Positions 1 through 40,150 of a stretch of DNA of 44,825 bases are shown here, in pieces. A program made the position numbers and the translations under genes. The stretch is taken from contig JAIXUT010000105.1 of NCBI GenBank assembly GCA_027483385.1, forward strand, positions 1 to 44,825. The letters run 5' to 3'. Positions within the stretch are counted from its first letter, which is position 1. Each line of letters opens with the position of its first letter. Source of the DNA: Alphaproteobacteria bacterium. Lineage in GTDB: Bacteria; Pseudomonadota; Alphaproteobacteria; UBA2136; UBA6156. The notes below the pieces were generated by a model. That model saw nothing but the letters and a program-made list of their open reading frames with translations. It was not told the DNA's origin and searched no databases.

Positions 1-159
<159 letters not shown>

Positions 160-287
160 TTTATTTTAAACACACCAGGCTGCTAAAAAAAGAGGCAGTT
201 CATCACACAAATTCAAAGTATTAACGGAAGCAGCTATACTTAGCAGACCTTGCAGTCAAGTGCCAAACCTTACAGATTTAAATTAGC

Positions 288-378
288 ACGCCGGTGGTGA
301 AACCGGTAAACACAGCGAACTGTTAATTCGCCATGGCTGACTAGGCCTTTGCGGGTTCAAATCCCGTCCGGCGCGCCA
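288..378 (+). tRNA. Atypical class II-like tRNA with Asn anticodon GTT, 19-nt variable region, encoded CCA
   Basis: Acceptor ACGCCGG/CCGGCGC (A1:C72 mismatch), D arm GTG-AAACCGGTAAA-CAC, anticodon arm GCGAA-CTGTTAA-TTCGC (anticodon 322-324), variable region 332-350, T arm GCGGG-TTCAAAT-CCCGT, discriminator G375, CCA 376-378. Confidence 0.88.
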
Positions 379-575
379 CTCTGATTTTTCAGAGCCGACA
401 TTTTGTCGTTAAATGCAATTTATGATTTTAAGAAAATTCGTCAATTAGTTTTTTTACTTTTAAAATCATAGAGAGTTATTTTTAAGAAAATGATTTTATT
501 GAATTTGTATATAAATGAACATAATTCATTATGCATATAATTTTTGCATTTGCTAAATTTGGGGTGTGACTTTTA

Positions 576-649
576 TGGAGCGGGATACGGGAATCGAACC
601 CGTGTCTAAAGCTTGGGAAGCTTTCGTGCTACCATTGAACCAATCCCGC
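576..649 (-). tRNA. tRNA-Gly(CCC)
   Basis: Reverse complement GCGGGATTGGTTCAATGGTAGCACGAAAGCTTCCCAAGCTTTAGACACGGGTTCGATTCCCGTATCCCGCTCCA: canonical 74-nt cloverleaf, anticodon CCC, U73, CCA. Confidence 0.97.
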
Positions 650-659
650 TCATGGTCTT

Positions 660-688
660 CTTCTAGCAAGGGTTCACGGGCTGGGCAA
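660..688 (-). promoter_or_regulatory. Sigma70-type promoter of tRNA-Gly
   Basis: Minus strand TTGCCC-17 nt-TAGAAG ending 10 nt before the tRNA 5' end. Confidence 0.6.
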
Positions 689-780
689 GAGGGAATCGAA
701 GCGCAGCGTAGAACGGCGCCCACAGGGTGCCAATTGAACACGGTCTGAAGCTTGGGACCCGCACGGCGGCCGCAGGCCAA

Positions 781-964
781 CCGCGCAGCGGTCATCCTTA
801 GCCTCTTGTTGGTACCGAAGTTCAAAAGCTTGGACGCGAAGGACCCAAGCGGGGTGTGGCCGATGGCAGCAAATGGCTTCGGTTAATTTGCGCACTGGAT
901 CCTTCGCCGAGGCCCGCACCGACTTCGGCCCCATGGGTGCGCTCAGGATGACCGCTTGCGGCGG
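781..964. repeat. Branched palindromic (REP/REPIN-like) element
   Basis: GCGGTCATCCTTAGC (788-802) pairs with GCTCAGGATGACCGC (941-955); inner GCGAAGGACCCA (836-847) pairs with TGGATCCTTCGC (896-907); side hairpin GCACC..GGTGC (916-940). Confidence 0.7.
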
Positions 965-979
965 CAGTGCGCGGTACCC

Positions 980-2824
980 CTATTTCAGCTTCACCGCAAT
1001 GCTGAGTTCGCGCAGTTGCTTGTCATCCACCACGCTGGGGGCGCCCATCAGCAGGTCTTCGCCGCGTTGGGTCATCGGGAAGGCCACCACCTCGCGCACC
1101 ATAGTGCTTTCGGCCAGCAGCATCACCACGCGTTCCAGCCCCGCCGCGCAGCCGCCGTGGGGTGGGGCGCCCAAGTGAAACGCCTTCCACATGCCGCGGA
1201 ATTTATCCTTCACCATGTCGGCAGGCAGGCCCGCAATTTCGAACGCCTTCAGCATCGCTTCGGGCAGGTGGTTGCGTATGCCGCCGCTAATCAGCTCGTA
1301 GCCGTTACAGACCAAATCGTACTGCGTGGCTTTAATGGTGAGGGGGTCTTGGGTATTCAGCGCTTCCAACCCTCCCTGCGGCATGGAAAACGGGTTGTGC
1401 GAAAAATCGTAACCCTTGCCATCGTCGCGGGGCTCGAACATCGGGAAATCCACAATCCAGGCGAACTTGTAAATATTCTGTTCGTTCAGGCCGCAGTCGG
1501 CACCCAAGCGCACGCGCAGGGGGTTGAGAATTTTGTGAATCGCGGGTTCTTTGCCTGCCACCATAAACACCACGTCGCCTTCAGCACATCCACAACGTCC
1601 GAATAATTCAAATGGTTGAGCGCCATCTAAAAATTTATATAGCGGGCCTATAAATTTGCCATCTTTACGTGTGATGTAGCCAGGAGCTGCAGGCGCACCA
1701 AGTGATTCCTGGGCCCATTTTCCTATCGTATCAAACCAGCTGCGAGGCATGTTTCCTGCCCCCTTCACCCCAATCGCCCGCACTACACCGCCGCTGGCGA
1801 CAATATTTTTGAACACCTGAAACTCGGTATTGGCCCAGATGTCGCTCACATCCACAATCTCCAGCGGGCAGCGCAGGTCGGGTTTGTCGGAAGAATACTT
1901 CAGCAGCGCGTCATCGTAGGCAATGCGCACCCACGGCGCAGGGGTAATGGCCTGCGGCGCGGCCTTGCGCCCGTTGCCGTTCCAGTTGGCAAACTCCTCA
2001 AACACGCCGCCCAGTACGCTTTCGGCGACACGGAAAACATCATCCTGCTCGACAAAGCTCATTTCTAAGTCCAGCTGGTAAAAGTCGGTCGGGCAGCGGT
2101 CGGCGCGGGCGTCTTCATCGCGGAAACAGGGGGCGATTTGGAAGTATTTATCGAACCCGCTGACCATGAACAGCTGCTTGAACTGTTGCGGTGCCTGCGG
2201 CAGCGCGTAAAACTTGCCCGGGTGCAGGCGGCTGGGCACCAAAAAGTCGCGCGCGCCTTCGGGGCTGCTGGCCGTGAGAATGGGCGTTTGGTATTCCCGG
2301 AACCCTAACCCCCACATGCGCTTACGGATGCTGGCAATCACGTCGCTGCGGAGCTGAATGGTGCTGGCCACATCGTCGCGGCGCAAATCCAGAAAGCGGT
2401 AGGCCAGCCGCAGGTCTTCGGGCACGCTGTCGTCTTCCAGCGCGTAGGGCAGGGGTTGCGCCAACCCCAAAACTTCAAAGCGCTGCACTTCAATTTCAAT
2501 CGCGCCCGTGGCCAGTTTGGGGTTGGTCAGGCCTTCGCCGCGGGCCAGCACGGTGCCTTTTACCTGAATCACGCTTTCAAGCCCCGTATGCGTAATGGCA
2601 TCGATGCCCGCAGTGCCAAGCAAGGTGGGCTTGAACACAATCTGCACCAGCCCGCTGGCGTCGCGGAGGTCGATAAACACCACCCCGCCGTGGTCGCGCC
2701 GCCGAAACACCCAGCCCGCCAGCTTGACGGGCTGGCCCACGTCGGCCACGCGTAAATCGGCGCAGCGGTGGCTGCGGTAGCGCGGGTTCAGCGTTGTGGA
2801 GGTGGGCAGGGGGGCCACAGACAT
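980..2824 (-). CDS. aspS: Aspartate--tRNA ligase, probably non-discriminating (Asp/Asn)
   Basis: RRDHGGVVFIDLRD, SSPEGARDF, YALPQAPQQFKQ, QIAPCFRDED, GAPPHGG motifs; start moved to ATG 2824 behind an AAGGA RBS. Confidence 0.97.
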   Translation of the reverse strand: MSVAPLPTSTTLNPRYRSHRCADLRVADVGQPVKLAGWVFRRRDHGGVVFIDLRDASGLVQIVFKPTLLGTAGIDAITHTGLESVIQVKGTVLARGEGLTNPKLATGAIEIEVQRFEVLGLAQPLPYALEDDSVPEDLRLAYRFLDLRRDDVASTIQLRSDVIASIRKRMWGLGFREYQTPILTASSPEGARDFLVPSRLHPGKFYALPQAPQQFKQLFMVSGFDKYFQIAPCFRDEDARADRCPTDFYQLDLEMSFVEQDDVFRVAESVLGGVFEEFANWNGNGRKAAPQAITPAPWVRIAYDDALLKYSSDKPDLRCPLEIVDVSDIWANTEFQVFKNIVASGGVVRAIGVKGAGNMPRSWFDTIGKWAQESLGAPAAPGYITRKDGKFIGPLYKFLDGAQPFELFGRCGCAEGDVVFMVAGKEPAIHKILNPLRVRLGADCGLNEQNIYKFAWIVDFPMFEPRDDGKGYDFSHNPFSMPQGGLEALNTQDPLTIKATQYDLVCNGYELISGGIRNHLPEAMLKAFEIAGLPADMVKDKFRGMWKAFHLGAPPHGGCAAGLERVVMLLAESTMVREVVAFPMTQRGEDLLMGAPSVVDDKQLRELSIAVKLK

Positions 2825-2906
2825 CGGGTAATTCCTTATGTTTACCGCAGCTTTTTGCGGGAAGGGGCTTGACCTGTCAAGGCAAAGGCGGCTTTTTACC
2901 TGTATC

Positions 2907-4022
2907 ATGGCACTCTTTGCACGGAATCAAAACATGGCAACCCGCGTGGGGATGGCGCTGGTGGTGCTGGCGCTGGCACTTGGGGTGTATGCCGCAACCA
3001 AGTATTTTGGCGCGTTGGGGCAAACGCCTTACGGCACCATCACGCCCCAGATGACCCTGGCCGACCTGCCCTTTACCCCCGCCCCAAGTATTAGCCCCAC
3101 CGGCCCCAAAAACCACCGCACCCAGTTGGCACCGCCACCGCCCTTGCCGATTGAAGGCCGCCCGGATGGCATTGCGCCCAACACCTTTAATCCGTTATCG
3201 GAAGCCGAAATTGCCGAACTTGGCAGAACTGGCAGCCCCACCGTGGCCGACCCAACCGGCGTGCGCCAACGCCAATTTTTAGCCCAAATTGGCTTTAGCT
3301 TTACCACCGAAGGCTTCTTTGCCGCCGCCCGGCAGGGCAATATGCGGGCCATCAATGCTTTTTTAAACACTGGGATGCCTGTCGGTACCCGCAACAGCTT
3401 TGGCAGTACGGCCTTGCATGCGGCGGTGGAAAGCGGGCAGCTGGCAGCCGCGCAATTGTTGCTGCGGCGTGGTGCCGAGCTTGACGCCACCGCCAGCACC
3501 TTGCAAACGCCATTGCACCGCGCCGCCGCCGCCAACAATTTGCCCATGGTGCAGATGCTGCTGCAAGCTGGCGCCCAAGCCAATGCGGCCACGCTGGAAG
3601 GCTGGACGCCCCTGTTTGCTGCCGCTGAAAACAATAACCGCGCGATGACCGAAACACTGCTGAACAATGGCGCCTTGGTGAATGTGCAAGACCGGTTTGG
3701 CAACAGCGCACTTACTATGGCGGTACGGAGCAATTTCCTACCGCTGGCGCGGCTGCTGCTGCAAAACAATGCCAATCCGAATTTGCGCGATATTGCTGGC
3801 CGCACCGTAATGCATAGTGCGGCTTCTGGCAGTTTTTACGACATGACCAAGTTGCTGCTGGAAAACGGCGGCCAGGCCGATGTGCGCGACCGCCAGGGGC
3901 TGCTGCCGATGGATATTGCCTTGGCGAAAAACGACCTGGCCATCGCCAACCTGTTGCTGGCCTACGGCGCCAAACGTAAGCCCCTGATGGGTACGGGCGA
4001 GCGCGGTATCGGCCCGCGCTAA
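2907..4022 (+). CDS. Membrane-anchored/exported ankyrin repeat protein (start 2907 or 2934)
   Basis: N-terminal hydrophobic helix, Pro-rich linker, about 7 ankyrin repeats (GSTALHAAV, QTPLHRAA, GWTPLFAAA, GNSALTMAV, GRTVMHSAA). Confidence 0.9.
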   Translation: MALFARNQNMATRVGMALVVLALALGVYAATKYFGALGQTPYGTITPQMTLADLPFTPAPSISPTGPKNHRTQLAPPPPLPIEGRPDGIAPNTFNPLSEAEIAELGRTGSPTVADPTGVRQRQFLAQIGFSFTTEGFFAAARQGNMRAINAFLNTGMPVGTRNSFGSTALHAAVESGQLAAAQLLLRRGAELDATASTLQTPLHRAAAANNLPMVQMLLQAGAQANAATLEGWTPLFAAAENNNRAMTETLLNNGALVNVQDRFGNSALTMAVRSNFLPLARLLLQNNANPNLRDIAGRTVMHSAASGSFYDMTKLLLENGGQADVRDRQGLLPMDIALAKNDLAIANLLLAYGAKRKPLMGTGERGIGPR

Positions 4023-39750: not shown

Positions 39751-39760
39751 TAGTCCCCTT

Positions 39761-40150
39761 GCAACGCATCCTGTAAGCCGGGTTCTGTGCTGCCTTACGG
39801 CAGTGATCATCATTCCTCTGGAACACAGGTTGCCCCGTGCCCTCAAGCTGCCGACCCGAACCTGTGCTGGACGCACGCCGCGCCACGAGCAGGTTCCTAT
39901 TTGGCATTGCACCCCTTGGCAGGTCGCCGTACCGCGCGTTGTTGCCAACGGCGTGGTGGGCTCTTACCCCACCGTTTCGCCCTTACCCCGGCCTTCTTGC
40001 GAAGGCTGAGGCGGTTTGTTTTCTGTTGCCCTGATGGTCGGCCCGCAAGGGAAGGGGCCGCCCCGCTGTTCACGGGCCAAGTGGCGTGTGGGTGCCCGGA
40101 CTTTCCTCGATCAATTTTTTCAAATTGACCGCGATGACCCGGATGCCGCC
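39761..40150 (-). ncRNA. rnpB: RNase P RNA, type A (ends approximate)
   Basis: GAGGAAAGTCCGGG, ACAGAAAA, GGGGTAAGGGCGAAACGGTGGGGTAAGAGCCCACC, AGAGGAATGAT, ACAGAACCCGGCTTAC; P1 GCATCC/GGATGC. Confidence 0.97.

Follow-up and report, generated by a model that had tools for sequence, protein, structure and literature searches.

The window, by which we mean the whole 44,825-nucleotide stretch analysed, carries near its start a tRNA gene that combines an asparagine anticodon with a long variable arm. ARAGORN calls this gene, hereafter the window tRNA, as a 91-nt tRNA-Asn(gtt) at positions 288–378 of the forward strand, with the anticodon at position 35 of the molecule, and the Rfam tRNA model (RF00005) covers positions 288–375 with 51.2 bits, the gathering score being 29 (E = 3.3e-8 over the whole window). 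The sequence and the ARAGORN bracket string give a 7/5 cloverleaf. In the acceptor stem (288–294 paired with 368–374), an A1·C72 mismatch, the sole non-standard pair flagged in the Rfam match, is followed by six Watson–Crick pairs, the first of them C2-G71. The bases U8 and G9 lead into the D arm (297–313), in which a 3-bp stem, GUG/CAC (297–299 and 311–313), containing the pair U11-A24, closes an 11-nt loop, AAACCGGUAAA. The anticodon arm (315–331) has a 5-bp stem and the loop CUGUUAA, with GUU at 322–324. The variable region (332–350) is 19 nt long (CAUGGCUGACUAGGCCUUU) and forms a 4-bp GGCU/GGCC stem, one pair of which is U·G, around a 5-nt loop, with three unpaired bases on either side of the stem. 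The T arm (351–367) reads GCGGG UUCAAAU CCCGU with a 5-bp stem, and the discriminator G73 at 375 is followed by an encoded CCA (376–378), as in the resident tRNAs. The bases C-1 and G-2, just upstream of the gene, could pair with G73 and C74.

Apart from 1–72, all stems are intact, and U8, A14, G18G19, A21, U33, A37, the pair G53-C61 and the UUCAAAU T loop are all kept. The D arm has the exact length and layout of that in the four resident class II tRNA-Leu genes, and the core is of the leucine type, with A15:U48, G18G19, a base at 20a and the 3-bp D stem. Minimum-energy folding did not return the cloverleaf (z = −1.33), as is usual for tRNAs, and was left unused. An earlier, sequence-only reading had described a 91-nt cloverleaf with GTT, G73, CCA, a 19-nt arm, a leucine-like D stem and an A1:C72 mismatch, and this description is correct wherever we checked it against ARAGORN, Rfam and the sequence. 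We conclude that the locus holds a real, intact-looking extra tRNA gene.

The sequence itself appears dependable. A 35.9-kb Logan contig from run X1, an independent assembly of what is probably the source sample, reproduces window positions 100–1000 with no differences, and a 237-nt contig from run X3, which belongs to another study, reproduces positions 100–304, also with none. The latter runs from the end of the upstream gene through the spacer into the tRNA, of which it covers the initial 17 nt, A288 included; the contigs of runs X2 and X20 leave the tRNA uncovered. Among the sequencing runs listed, none is catalogued as RNA. An assembly error at position 288 or in the anticodon, which had been named as one way in which the gene might be spurious, is not what these contigs indicate: the upstream junction and A1 (A288) agree in both X1 and X3, and the anticodon and C72 are backed by X1 only.

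Upstream of the tRNA lies the 3′ end of an open frame (1–159, forward strand) that is conserved in relatives and serves as a syntenic anchor; from its peptide we take it to be a thioredoxin-reductase-like gene, trxB. It is followed by a repeated short element at 178–230 (forward strand), of which 29 nt, at 181–209, are identical to contig C168 of the host assembly; the element as a whole, about 50 nt, corresponds to G000:C168:1952–2004 and also occurs on other contigs of runs X1–X3. This element overlaps a promoter-like site, TTCAAA-17 nt-TATACT (212–240, forward strand), which lies about 48 nt upstream of the tRNA and is a consensus match only (9/12); four such sites were found between positions 100 and 1000, with 1.0 expected. 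Immediately 3′ of the CCA, the sequence can be read as a hairpin, CTCTGA-TTTT-TCAGAG (379–394, forward strand), which may mark the end of the transcript; a terminator scan returned no terminator-like sites and left this hairpin unscored. An AT-rich spacer of 16–18% G+C (400–550), flanked by sequence of about 55–65% G+C, separates the 3′ end of the window tRNA from that of a resident tRNA-Gly(CCC) on the reverse strand (576–649; ARAGORN and Rfam), which adjoins the 3′ end of trxB in relatives.

Beyond the tRNA-Gly, which thus sits between the two, is the gene for a bacterial-type AspRS with a GAD domain (980–2908, reverse strand; Pfam, and NCBIfam aspS with 725 bits). The sequence-only reading had called the AspRS adjacent, but since aspS lies elsewhere in relatives this is not a conserved linkage. 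Between the tRNA-Gly and the aspS stop codon, positions 650–980 are G+C-rich and hold no convincing gene; they contain several inverted repeats, for example 787–802 with 941–956, and have no Rfam match, and a permissive Rfam scan of positions 1–1100 gave nothing beyond the known matches. On the other side, aspS adjoins a gene for a 394-aa ankyrin-repeat protein (2838–4022, forward strand), which is followed by genes for a sigma-54 activator and a Cache-domain chemoreceptor. Far downstream, at 39,759–40,150 on the reverse strand, the window encodes a bacterial RNase P RNA of class A (Rfam, 247.7 bits).

The host assembly (233 contigs, 1.94 Mb, 52.5% G+C, 89% complete) contains 41 tRNA genes, among them four tRNA-Ser, a tRNA-Tyr and four class II tRNA-Leu. 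The sequence-only reading had pointed to a canonical tRNA-Asn, asnS and gatCAB as the genes to look for. A canonical 75-nt tRNA-Asn(GUU) with U1-A72 lies on a separate contig (C176), GatB is present, and the asnS model scores over its cut-off in none of the 29 genomes of the order. PF00152 identifies two genes only in the host genome, for AspRS and LysRS, and the AspRS of the window is the sole enzyme of the AspRS/AsnRS type found there. From this gene content we infer that Asn-tRNA is made by a non-discriminating AspRS together with GatCAB and, because the order is without an AsnRS over the cut-off, that any tRNA(GUU) here must be aspartylated first. One genome, the sole such case among the 29, has two tandem AsnRS-like frames of 463 and 445 aa (G007:C3:7112–9721); their scores, 250.8 and 244.8 bits, fall short of the asnS cut-off, which is 342.6.

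The features of the window tRNA can be set beside the determinants described in the available excerpts of three papers. Asparagine and aspartate identity both rest on the anticodon and G73 (PMC9976931), and the window tRNA carries the marks for AspRS, namely G34 U35 U36, G73 and G10. For bacterial GatCAB, U1-A72 promotes amidation, and G1-C72 and an extra base at 20A block it; an alternative reading is that what GatCAB requires is weakness of the 1–72 pair (PMC1635274). In the window tRNA, A1·C72 takes the place of U1-A72, and the D loop, 11 nt long, contains a 20a base. For EF-Tu, G49-U65 with G51-C63 confers strong binding of tRNA-Asp, Asp-tRNA-Asn is rejected owing to the T stem of tRNA-Asn, and the C1-A72 mismatch of the initiator tRNA weakens binding (PMC1904265). 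The T stem of the window tRNA is of the strong type (G49·U65, C50-G64, G51-C63) and, whereas the resident tRNA-Asn has GCUGG/CCAGC, its sequence, GCGGG/CCCGU, is exactly the one found in the resident tRNA-Asp. This identity could be due to chance, since the tRNA-His of the host has the same stem.

Long-armed tRNAs with this anticodon proved to be widespread. We scanned prokaryotic genomes, one per species, for CTGTTAA followed by 22–31 bases and a T-loop motif, a pattern that leaves out other T loops, including that of the host's own canonical tRNA-Asn, and which returned at least 120 stretches. Among the 120 prokaryotic matches listed, ARAGORN called long-armed tRNA(GTT) genes of 84–90 nt at 12 bacterial loci, four archaeal rows being set aside as probable introns. 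Seven of these 12 loci, again among the matches listed, lie in arrays of 11–36 tRNAs (L048, L053, L066, L100, L121, L125 and L142), the array hosts being metagenome-assembled genomes of Thermoguttaceae, Planctomycetota, Acidobacteriota and Saprospiraceae, together with Mycobacterium, Verrucosispora and Micromonospora. The same pattern applied to viral contigs gave at least 99 long-armed tRNA(GTT) genes in the 120 viral loci listed (L226–L345; ARAGORN). Seventeen long-armed copies failed parsing; 71 of the 83 parsed viral copies among the matches listed belong to loci of five or more tRNAs. The premise that long variable arms are confined to tRNAs for Leu, Ser, Tyr and Sec, from which the sequence-only reading had set out, fails for phage and tRNA-array genes, among which tRNA(GUU) with a long arm and tRNA-Leu with a short one are both common; this textbook limit would fall there even if the window tRNA were inert. 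In the accessible text of the papers that a literature search returned, tRNA-array papers included, we found no description of long-armed tRNA(GUU) or short-armed tRNA-Leu in phage clusters or arrays. Two of the viral copies, when compared with cultured phages, matched nothing at E 1e-8; at E 0.01 all matches were to genuine tRNA-Ser(UGA) genes from Bacillus phages and were rejected.

Among the matches listed, the 83 parsed viral copies have U1-A72 with G73 in 52 cases, G1-C72 with G73 in 25 and G1-C72 with U73 in six; the corresponding numbers for the 12 parsed bacterial copies are nine, three and none. T stems were classed as weak where 49–65 lacks U and 51–63 contains it, and as strong where 49–65 contains U and 51–63 lacks it. 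On this definition, the viral copies listed comprise 55 weak, 17 with both features, 11 with neither and none that is strong, and the bacterial copies listed comprise seven weak, one with both, two with neither and two strong. The strong-type stem is confined, among the matches listed, to the chromosomal singletons L056 and L118, which have G1-C72, and to the window tRNA with its A1·C72, a pair seen in none of the 83 viral and none of the 12 bacterial copies.

Several of the individual loci deserve mention. L056 (5615–5700, reverse strand) comes from a Limisphaerales metagenome-assembled genome that also has a canonical tRNA-Asn. A search of 40 relatives did not find this tRNA; over 28 nt, its acceptor stem and T arm are 93–96% identical to the tRNA-Asp(GUC) of three genomes related to its own. 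In Labilibaculum manganireducens, six tRNA(GUU) genes stand in tandem (G468:C19:67145–68118; L211–L216), three with a normal variable loop and three with a 14-nt inserted hairpin. A 2.1-Mb uncultured bacterium carries a long-armed copy with a leucine-like D arm, U1-A72 and G73 (L150; G466:C5:205637–205673); this copy is the only match in that genome to a loose tRNA(GUU) pattern and may be its sole tRNA-Asn. One Saprospiraceae array contains an 88-nt tRNA-Lys.

The body of the window tRNA was compared with profile hidden Markov models built from ARAGORN-called tRNAs, mostly phage and array tRNAs, with anticodons masked and the window tRNA excluded. Members of these profiles score a median of 35–48 bits on their own model and 2–24 bits on others. 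The window tRNA scored highest on the long-armed Asn profile (31.2–33.4 bits) and the class II Leu profile (29.9 bits), followed by the short Leu (about 22 bits), Asp (20 bits), Tyr (18.8 bits), Ser (17.7 bits) and canonical Asn (9.5 bits) profiles. For the long-armed Asn profile, the members' median is 40.8 bits versus 12–18 bits for other class II types. The members' median for the Ser profile is 37.2 bits, and the score of the window tRNA on it is at the level of unrelated class II tRNAs. The best pairwise scores of the window tRNA to long-armed copies are low, and none of the sets contains a close relative of it. In view of the profile scores, we regard its body as a hybrid, with a leucine-type D arm and core, an aspartate-type T arm and no likeness to tRNA-Ser.

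The serine identity rules of E. coli provided the background for the serine comparison. All four resident tRNA-Ser genes have G1-C72, G2-C71, C11-G24 and a 5–6-bp arm flanked at either end by a single unpaired base; none of these marks occurs in the window tRNA, in which the long arm and G73 are the serine-type features present. From tRNA-Leu it has the core (A15:U48, G18G19, the 20a base and the 3-bp D stem) and differs in having G73 for A73, and from tRNA-Sec it lacks the 8/5 branch, the 6-bp D stem and the anticodon UCA. With a canonical tRNA-Asn of the indirect pathway, the route through a non-discriminating AspRS and GatCAB, it shares GUU, A37, A38, G73 and G10, and the same AspRS would be expected to charge it. 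In the host's canonical tRNA-Asn, however, the first pair is U1-A72, the D and variable loops measure 7 and 5 nt, and the T stem reads GCUGG/CCAGC, and the window tRNA differs in all four; a T stem of the weak EF-Tu type and a variable loop of 4–5 nt are replaced by G49·U65 with G51-C63 and by the 19-nt region.

The closest known counterparts are the long-armed tRNA(GUU) genes of phage clusters and of horizontally spread arrays, the class on which the window tRNA has its best profile score. Like it, they form a 7/5 cloverleaf with the CUGUUAA loop, G73 and a variable region of 14–23 nt containing a short hairpin, and their D arm is often Leu-, Tyr- or Ser-like, that of the window tRNA being Leu-like. 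They differ in the first pair, which among the viral matches listed is U1-A72 (52/83) or G1-C72 (31/83) rather than A1·C72, and in being clustered, with T stems of Asn or mixed type (strong in 0/83 of those listed), whereas the window tRNA is a chromosomal singleton with a tRNA-Asp-type T stem. Its only neighbouring tRNA is the resident tRNA-Gly, and the locus has no phage or plasmid match. A foreign tRNA of the long-armed tRNA(GUU) kind is the best-supported assignment. A phage-derived tRNA-Asn variant had been among the suggestions of the sequence-only reading, which stands as to the kind of tRNA. Since none of the viral copies listed has a strong T stem and none an A·C pair, the window tRNA would be an atypical or a mutated member of the class.

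Two other known systems offer partial parallels. Streptomyces tRNAProX/ProA, mistranslating tRNAs derived from tRNA-Pro, reportedly have a class I shape, proline identity and a dedicated synthetase paralogue, and include a form with an Asn anticodon. They too are natural bacterial tRNAs in which body and anticodon indicate different amino acids, but they have their own synthetase paralogue, and no extra synthetase was found in the host genome here. The allo-tRNAs, as described in the main text of Mukai et al. (Nucleic Acids Res 2017, PMC5389517), share with the window tRNA a long arm, G73 and a non-serine anticodon, and are likewise sporadic, tied to mobile DNA and possible missense translators. 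Their acceptor/T branch is by definition 8/4 or 9/3, their D stem is long and capped by a tetraloop, and their anticodon stems are longer (PMC5389517); the window tRNA, in contrast, is 7/5, an eighth pair having to join U8 with U65, and its D stem of 3 bp carries a loop of 11 nt. The string GUU is absent from the main text of that paper, a statement that extends neither to its anticodon figure nor to its supplements.

No counterpart of the window tRNA was found in related organisms. A BLAST search with positions 270–395 found it in none of 60 relatives, the only match being one of 29 nt to the T arm, in G033, and the order's other 28 genomes contain no tRNA with this 3′ half at up to three mismatches. 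The end of trxB and tRNA-Gly(CCC) are near each other in relatives also, about 65 bp to 3.4 kb apart; ARAGORN found tRNA-Gly(CCC) at eight of ten such syntenic loci and a second tRNA at none. Positions 200–600, AT-rich spacer included, gave no blastn match in phage and plasmid collections, and the exact D-arm and extra-arm patterns had no matches in viral contigs. A pattern scan of the phylum matched one of 400 genomes, with a sequence that is not a tRNA, and the 3′-half pattern matched viral contigs once, at an unrelated 74-nt tRNA-like sequence; both were rejected. A metagenome pattern with the T arm of the window tRNA returned one contig, which ends at the anticodon loop and has U73. The search of relatives and phages for conservation, proposed with the sequence-only reading, thus came back empty across 60 relatives, ten syntenic loci and the phage, plasmid and metagenome collections. 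With no counterpart in relatives, at syntenic loci or in the order, we regard the window tRNA as species-specific and its site as variable; with no relatives of the gene, selection on it cannot be shown. The idea of an integration hot spot was dropped, the genes in the gap in relatives being ordinary (a rhodanese-type protein, a GMC oxidoreductase and unnamed open frames); no integrase was seen among the six open frames scanned there. Partial repeats of the 3′ end of tRNA-Gly, 17–21 nt long, are present at the loci of three relatives.

The explanation we prefer, tentatively, is that the window tRNA is a foreign accessory tRNA that AspRS would aspartylate and GatCAB would amidate poorly, making it weakly Asp-inserting or nearly silent. 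A long-armed tRNA(GUU) of the phage and array kind would have landed in a host where only aspartylation was possible. The non-discriminating AspRS would charge it by reading the anticodon and G73, GatCAB would act poorly on the attached aspartate for want of U1-A72 and with a 20a base in the 11-nt D loop, and the Asp-type T stem would let EF-Tu accept the resulting Asp-tRNA(GUU). If expressed, the gene would then supply mainly Asp-tRNA(GUU) and place a little aspartate at AAY codons, an effect that the A1·C72 mismatch and probably low expression would damp, maybe to near silence. The mismatch may be an attenuating mutation, since it is one transition away from the G1-C72 pair of L056 and L118. 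Aspartate left unamidated on this tRNA was one of the suggestions of the sequence-only reading, and it is compatible with asnS in 0/29 genomes, the presence of AspRS and GatB, the marks GUU, G73 and G10, the lack of U1-A72 and the T stem.

Several points weigh against this explanation. The T-stem match to tRNA-Asp extends over only 5 bp and is found in the host tRNA-His as well; tolerance of a 19-nt extra arm by AspRS is implied, by analogy, only by how common such tRNAs are; the A·C mismatch might satisfy GatCAB under the weak-pair reading in the excerpt of PMC1635274; a 1–72 mismatch is a negative EF-Tu element in initiator tRNA (PMC1904265, likewise in excerpt); and the tRNA is atypical of its class, or mutated, no viral copy among the 83 listed having either a strong T stem or A·C. 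Were the tRNA Asp-charged and used, a transamidation-dependent bacterium would possess a natural, gene-encoded source of Asn-to-Asp mistranslation, and the tRNA would show which features, among the first pair, the D loop and the T stem, keep the transamidation pathway safe.

The weak-pair reading leads to a more ordinary outcome, which is possible if rather doubtful: the window tRNA would be an accessory Asn decoder that is aspartylated and then amidated, the weak A1·C72 serving in place of U1-A72, and ribosomes would receive Asn-tRNA alone. The long arm would then be an addition of neutral or protective effect, which is probably also true of the phage copies. The predominance of U1-A72 with G73 among the matches listed (52 of 83 viral and nine of 12 bacterial copies) is consistent with such decoding, as is a compensatory change in the extra stem, U·G to C-G, between the Verrucosispora and Micromonospora copies. 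Against this, U1-A72 and a T stem of the Asn type are both missing from the window tRNA itself, whose D loop, at 11 nt and with a 20a base, resembles the GatCAB anti-determinant described in PMC1635274.

It is also conceivable, and we would give this a similarly modest probability, that the gene is a dead or dying relic of phage or array DNA in which a G1-to-A change broke G1-C72 and which is no longer expressed or charged. Its occurrence in one species only, beside a spacer of 16–18% G+C in a variable intergenic site, fits such a history, as does a first pair that is a single transition from that of the strong-T-stem singletons L056 and L118 and is seen in 0/83 viral and 0/12 bacterial copies among the matches listed. 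A decaying gene is harder to reconcile with the intactness of all other stems and of the conserved tertiary positions, with the retained CCA, with the promoter-like consensus match upstream and with the identical sequence, as far as the X3 contig reaches, in the sample of a second study.

A bolder proposal, which we consider unlikely, is that scattered chromosomal long-armed tRNA(GUU) genes (the window tRNA; L056, plainly founded on the acceptor stem and T arm of a tRNA-Asp; and perhaps L118) are dedicated Asn-to-Asp translators, charged by AspRS through the anticodon, evading GatCAB and accepted by EF-Tu owing to a T stem of the tRNA-Asp type. They would then constitute a gene-encoded means to acidify asparagine positions where Asn-tRNA comes only by the indirect route.

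Very improbable in our estimation is a non-translational role, as a decoy or spare for anticodon nucleases or in some other tRNA-like function, or else weak leucylation through the leucine-type core. Excerpts of PMC12803027 discuss tRNA arrays as putative anti-defence elements, but the first 8.6 kb revealed no gene for defence or for a nuclease next to the window tRNA. Leucylation would accord with the match of D arm and core to the resident tRNA-Leu genes and with the 29.9 bits on the Leu profile, but the discriminator is G73 and not the A73 that E. coli LeuRS requires according to the PMC9976931 excerpt.

Least probable is the proposal of the sequence-only reading that SerRS charges the tRNA through its long arm and G73 so that AAY codons are read as serine, after the manner of allo-tRNAs, which insert serine in E. 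coli with non-serine anticodons (PMC5389517, main text): beyond those two features, the marks common to the four resident tRNA-Ser genes (G1-C72, G2-C71, C11-G24 and the 5–6-bp arm with single flanking bases) are missing, the Ser profile is at background (17.7 bits against a members' median of 37.2) and the core, with A15:U48 and a base at 20a, is of the leucine type.

In the seven arrays that hold long-armed tRNA(GUU) genes, many of the tRNA-Leu genes are short, at 74–78 nt. The host genome itself contains a 76-nt tRNA of class I shape with the Leu anticodon UAA and A73 (G000:C146:3846–3921, reverse strand; L181:1501–1576). BLAST matches to it occur in 27 of 30 relatives, among them 16 of 16 from the family, and ARAGORN gave the same 76-nt call at all five loci of relatives that were checked. 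A D-arm pattern applied to three well-assembled relatives recovered class II tRNA-Leu genes with the anticodons GAG, UAG and CAG only, so the short tRNA(UAA) may be the only UUA reader of the lineage. On the short-Leu profile, built from phage and array tRNAs, it scores 42.6 bits, the next best profile giving 23.
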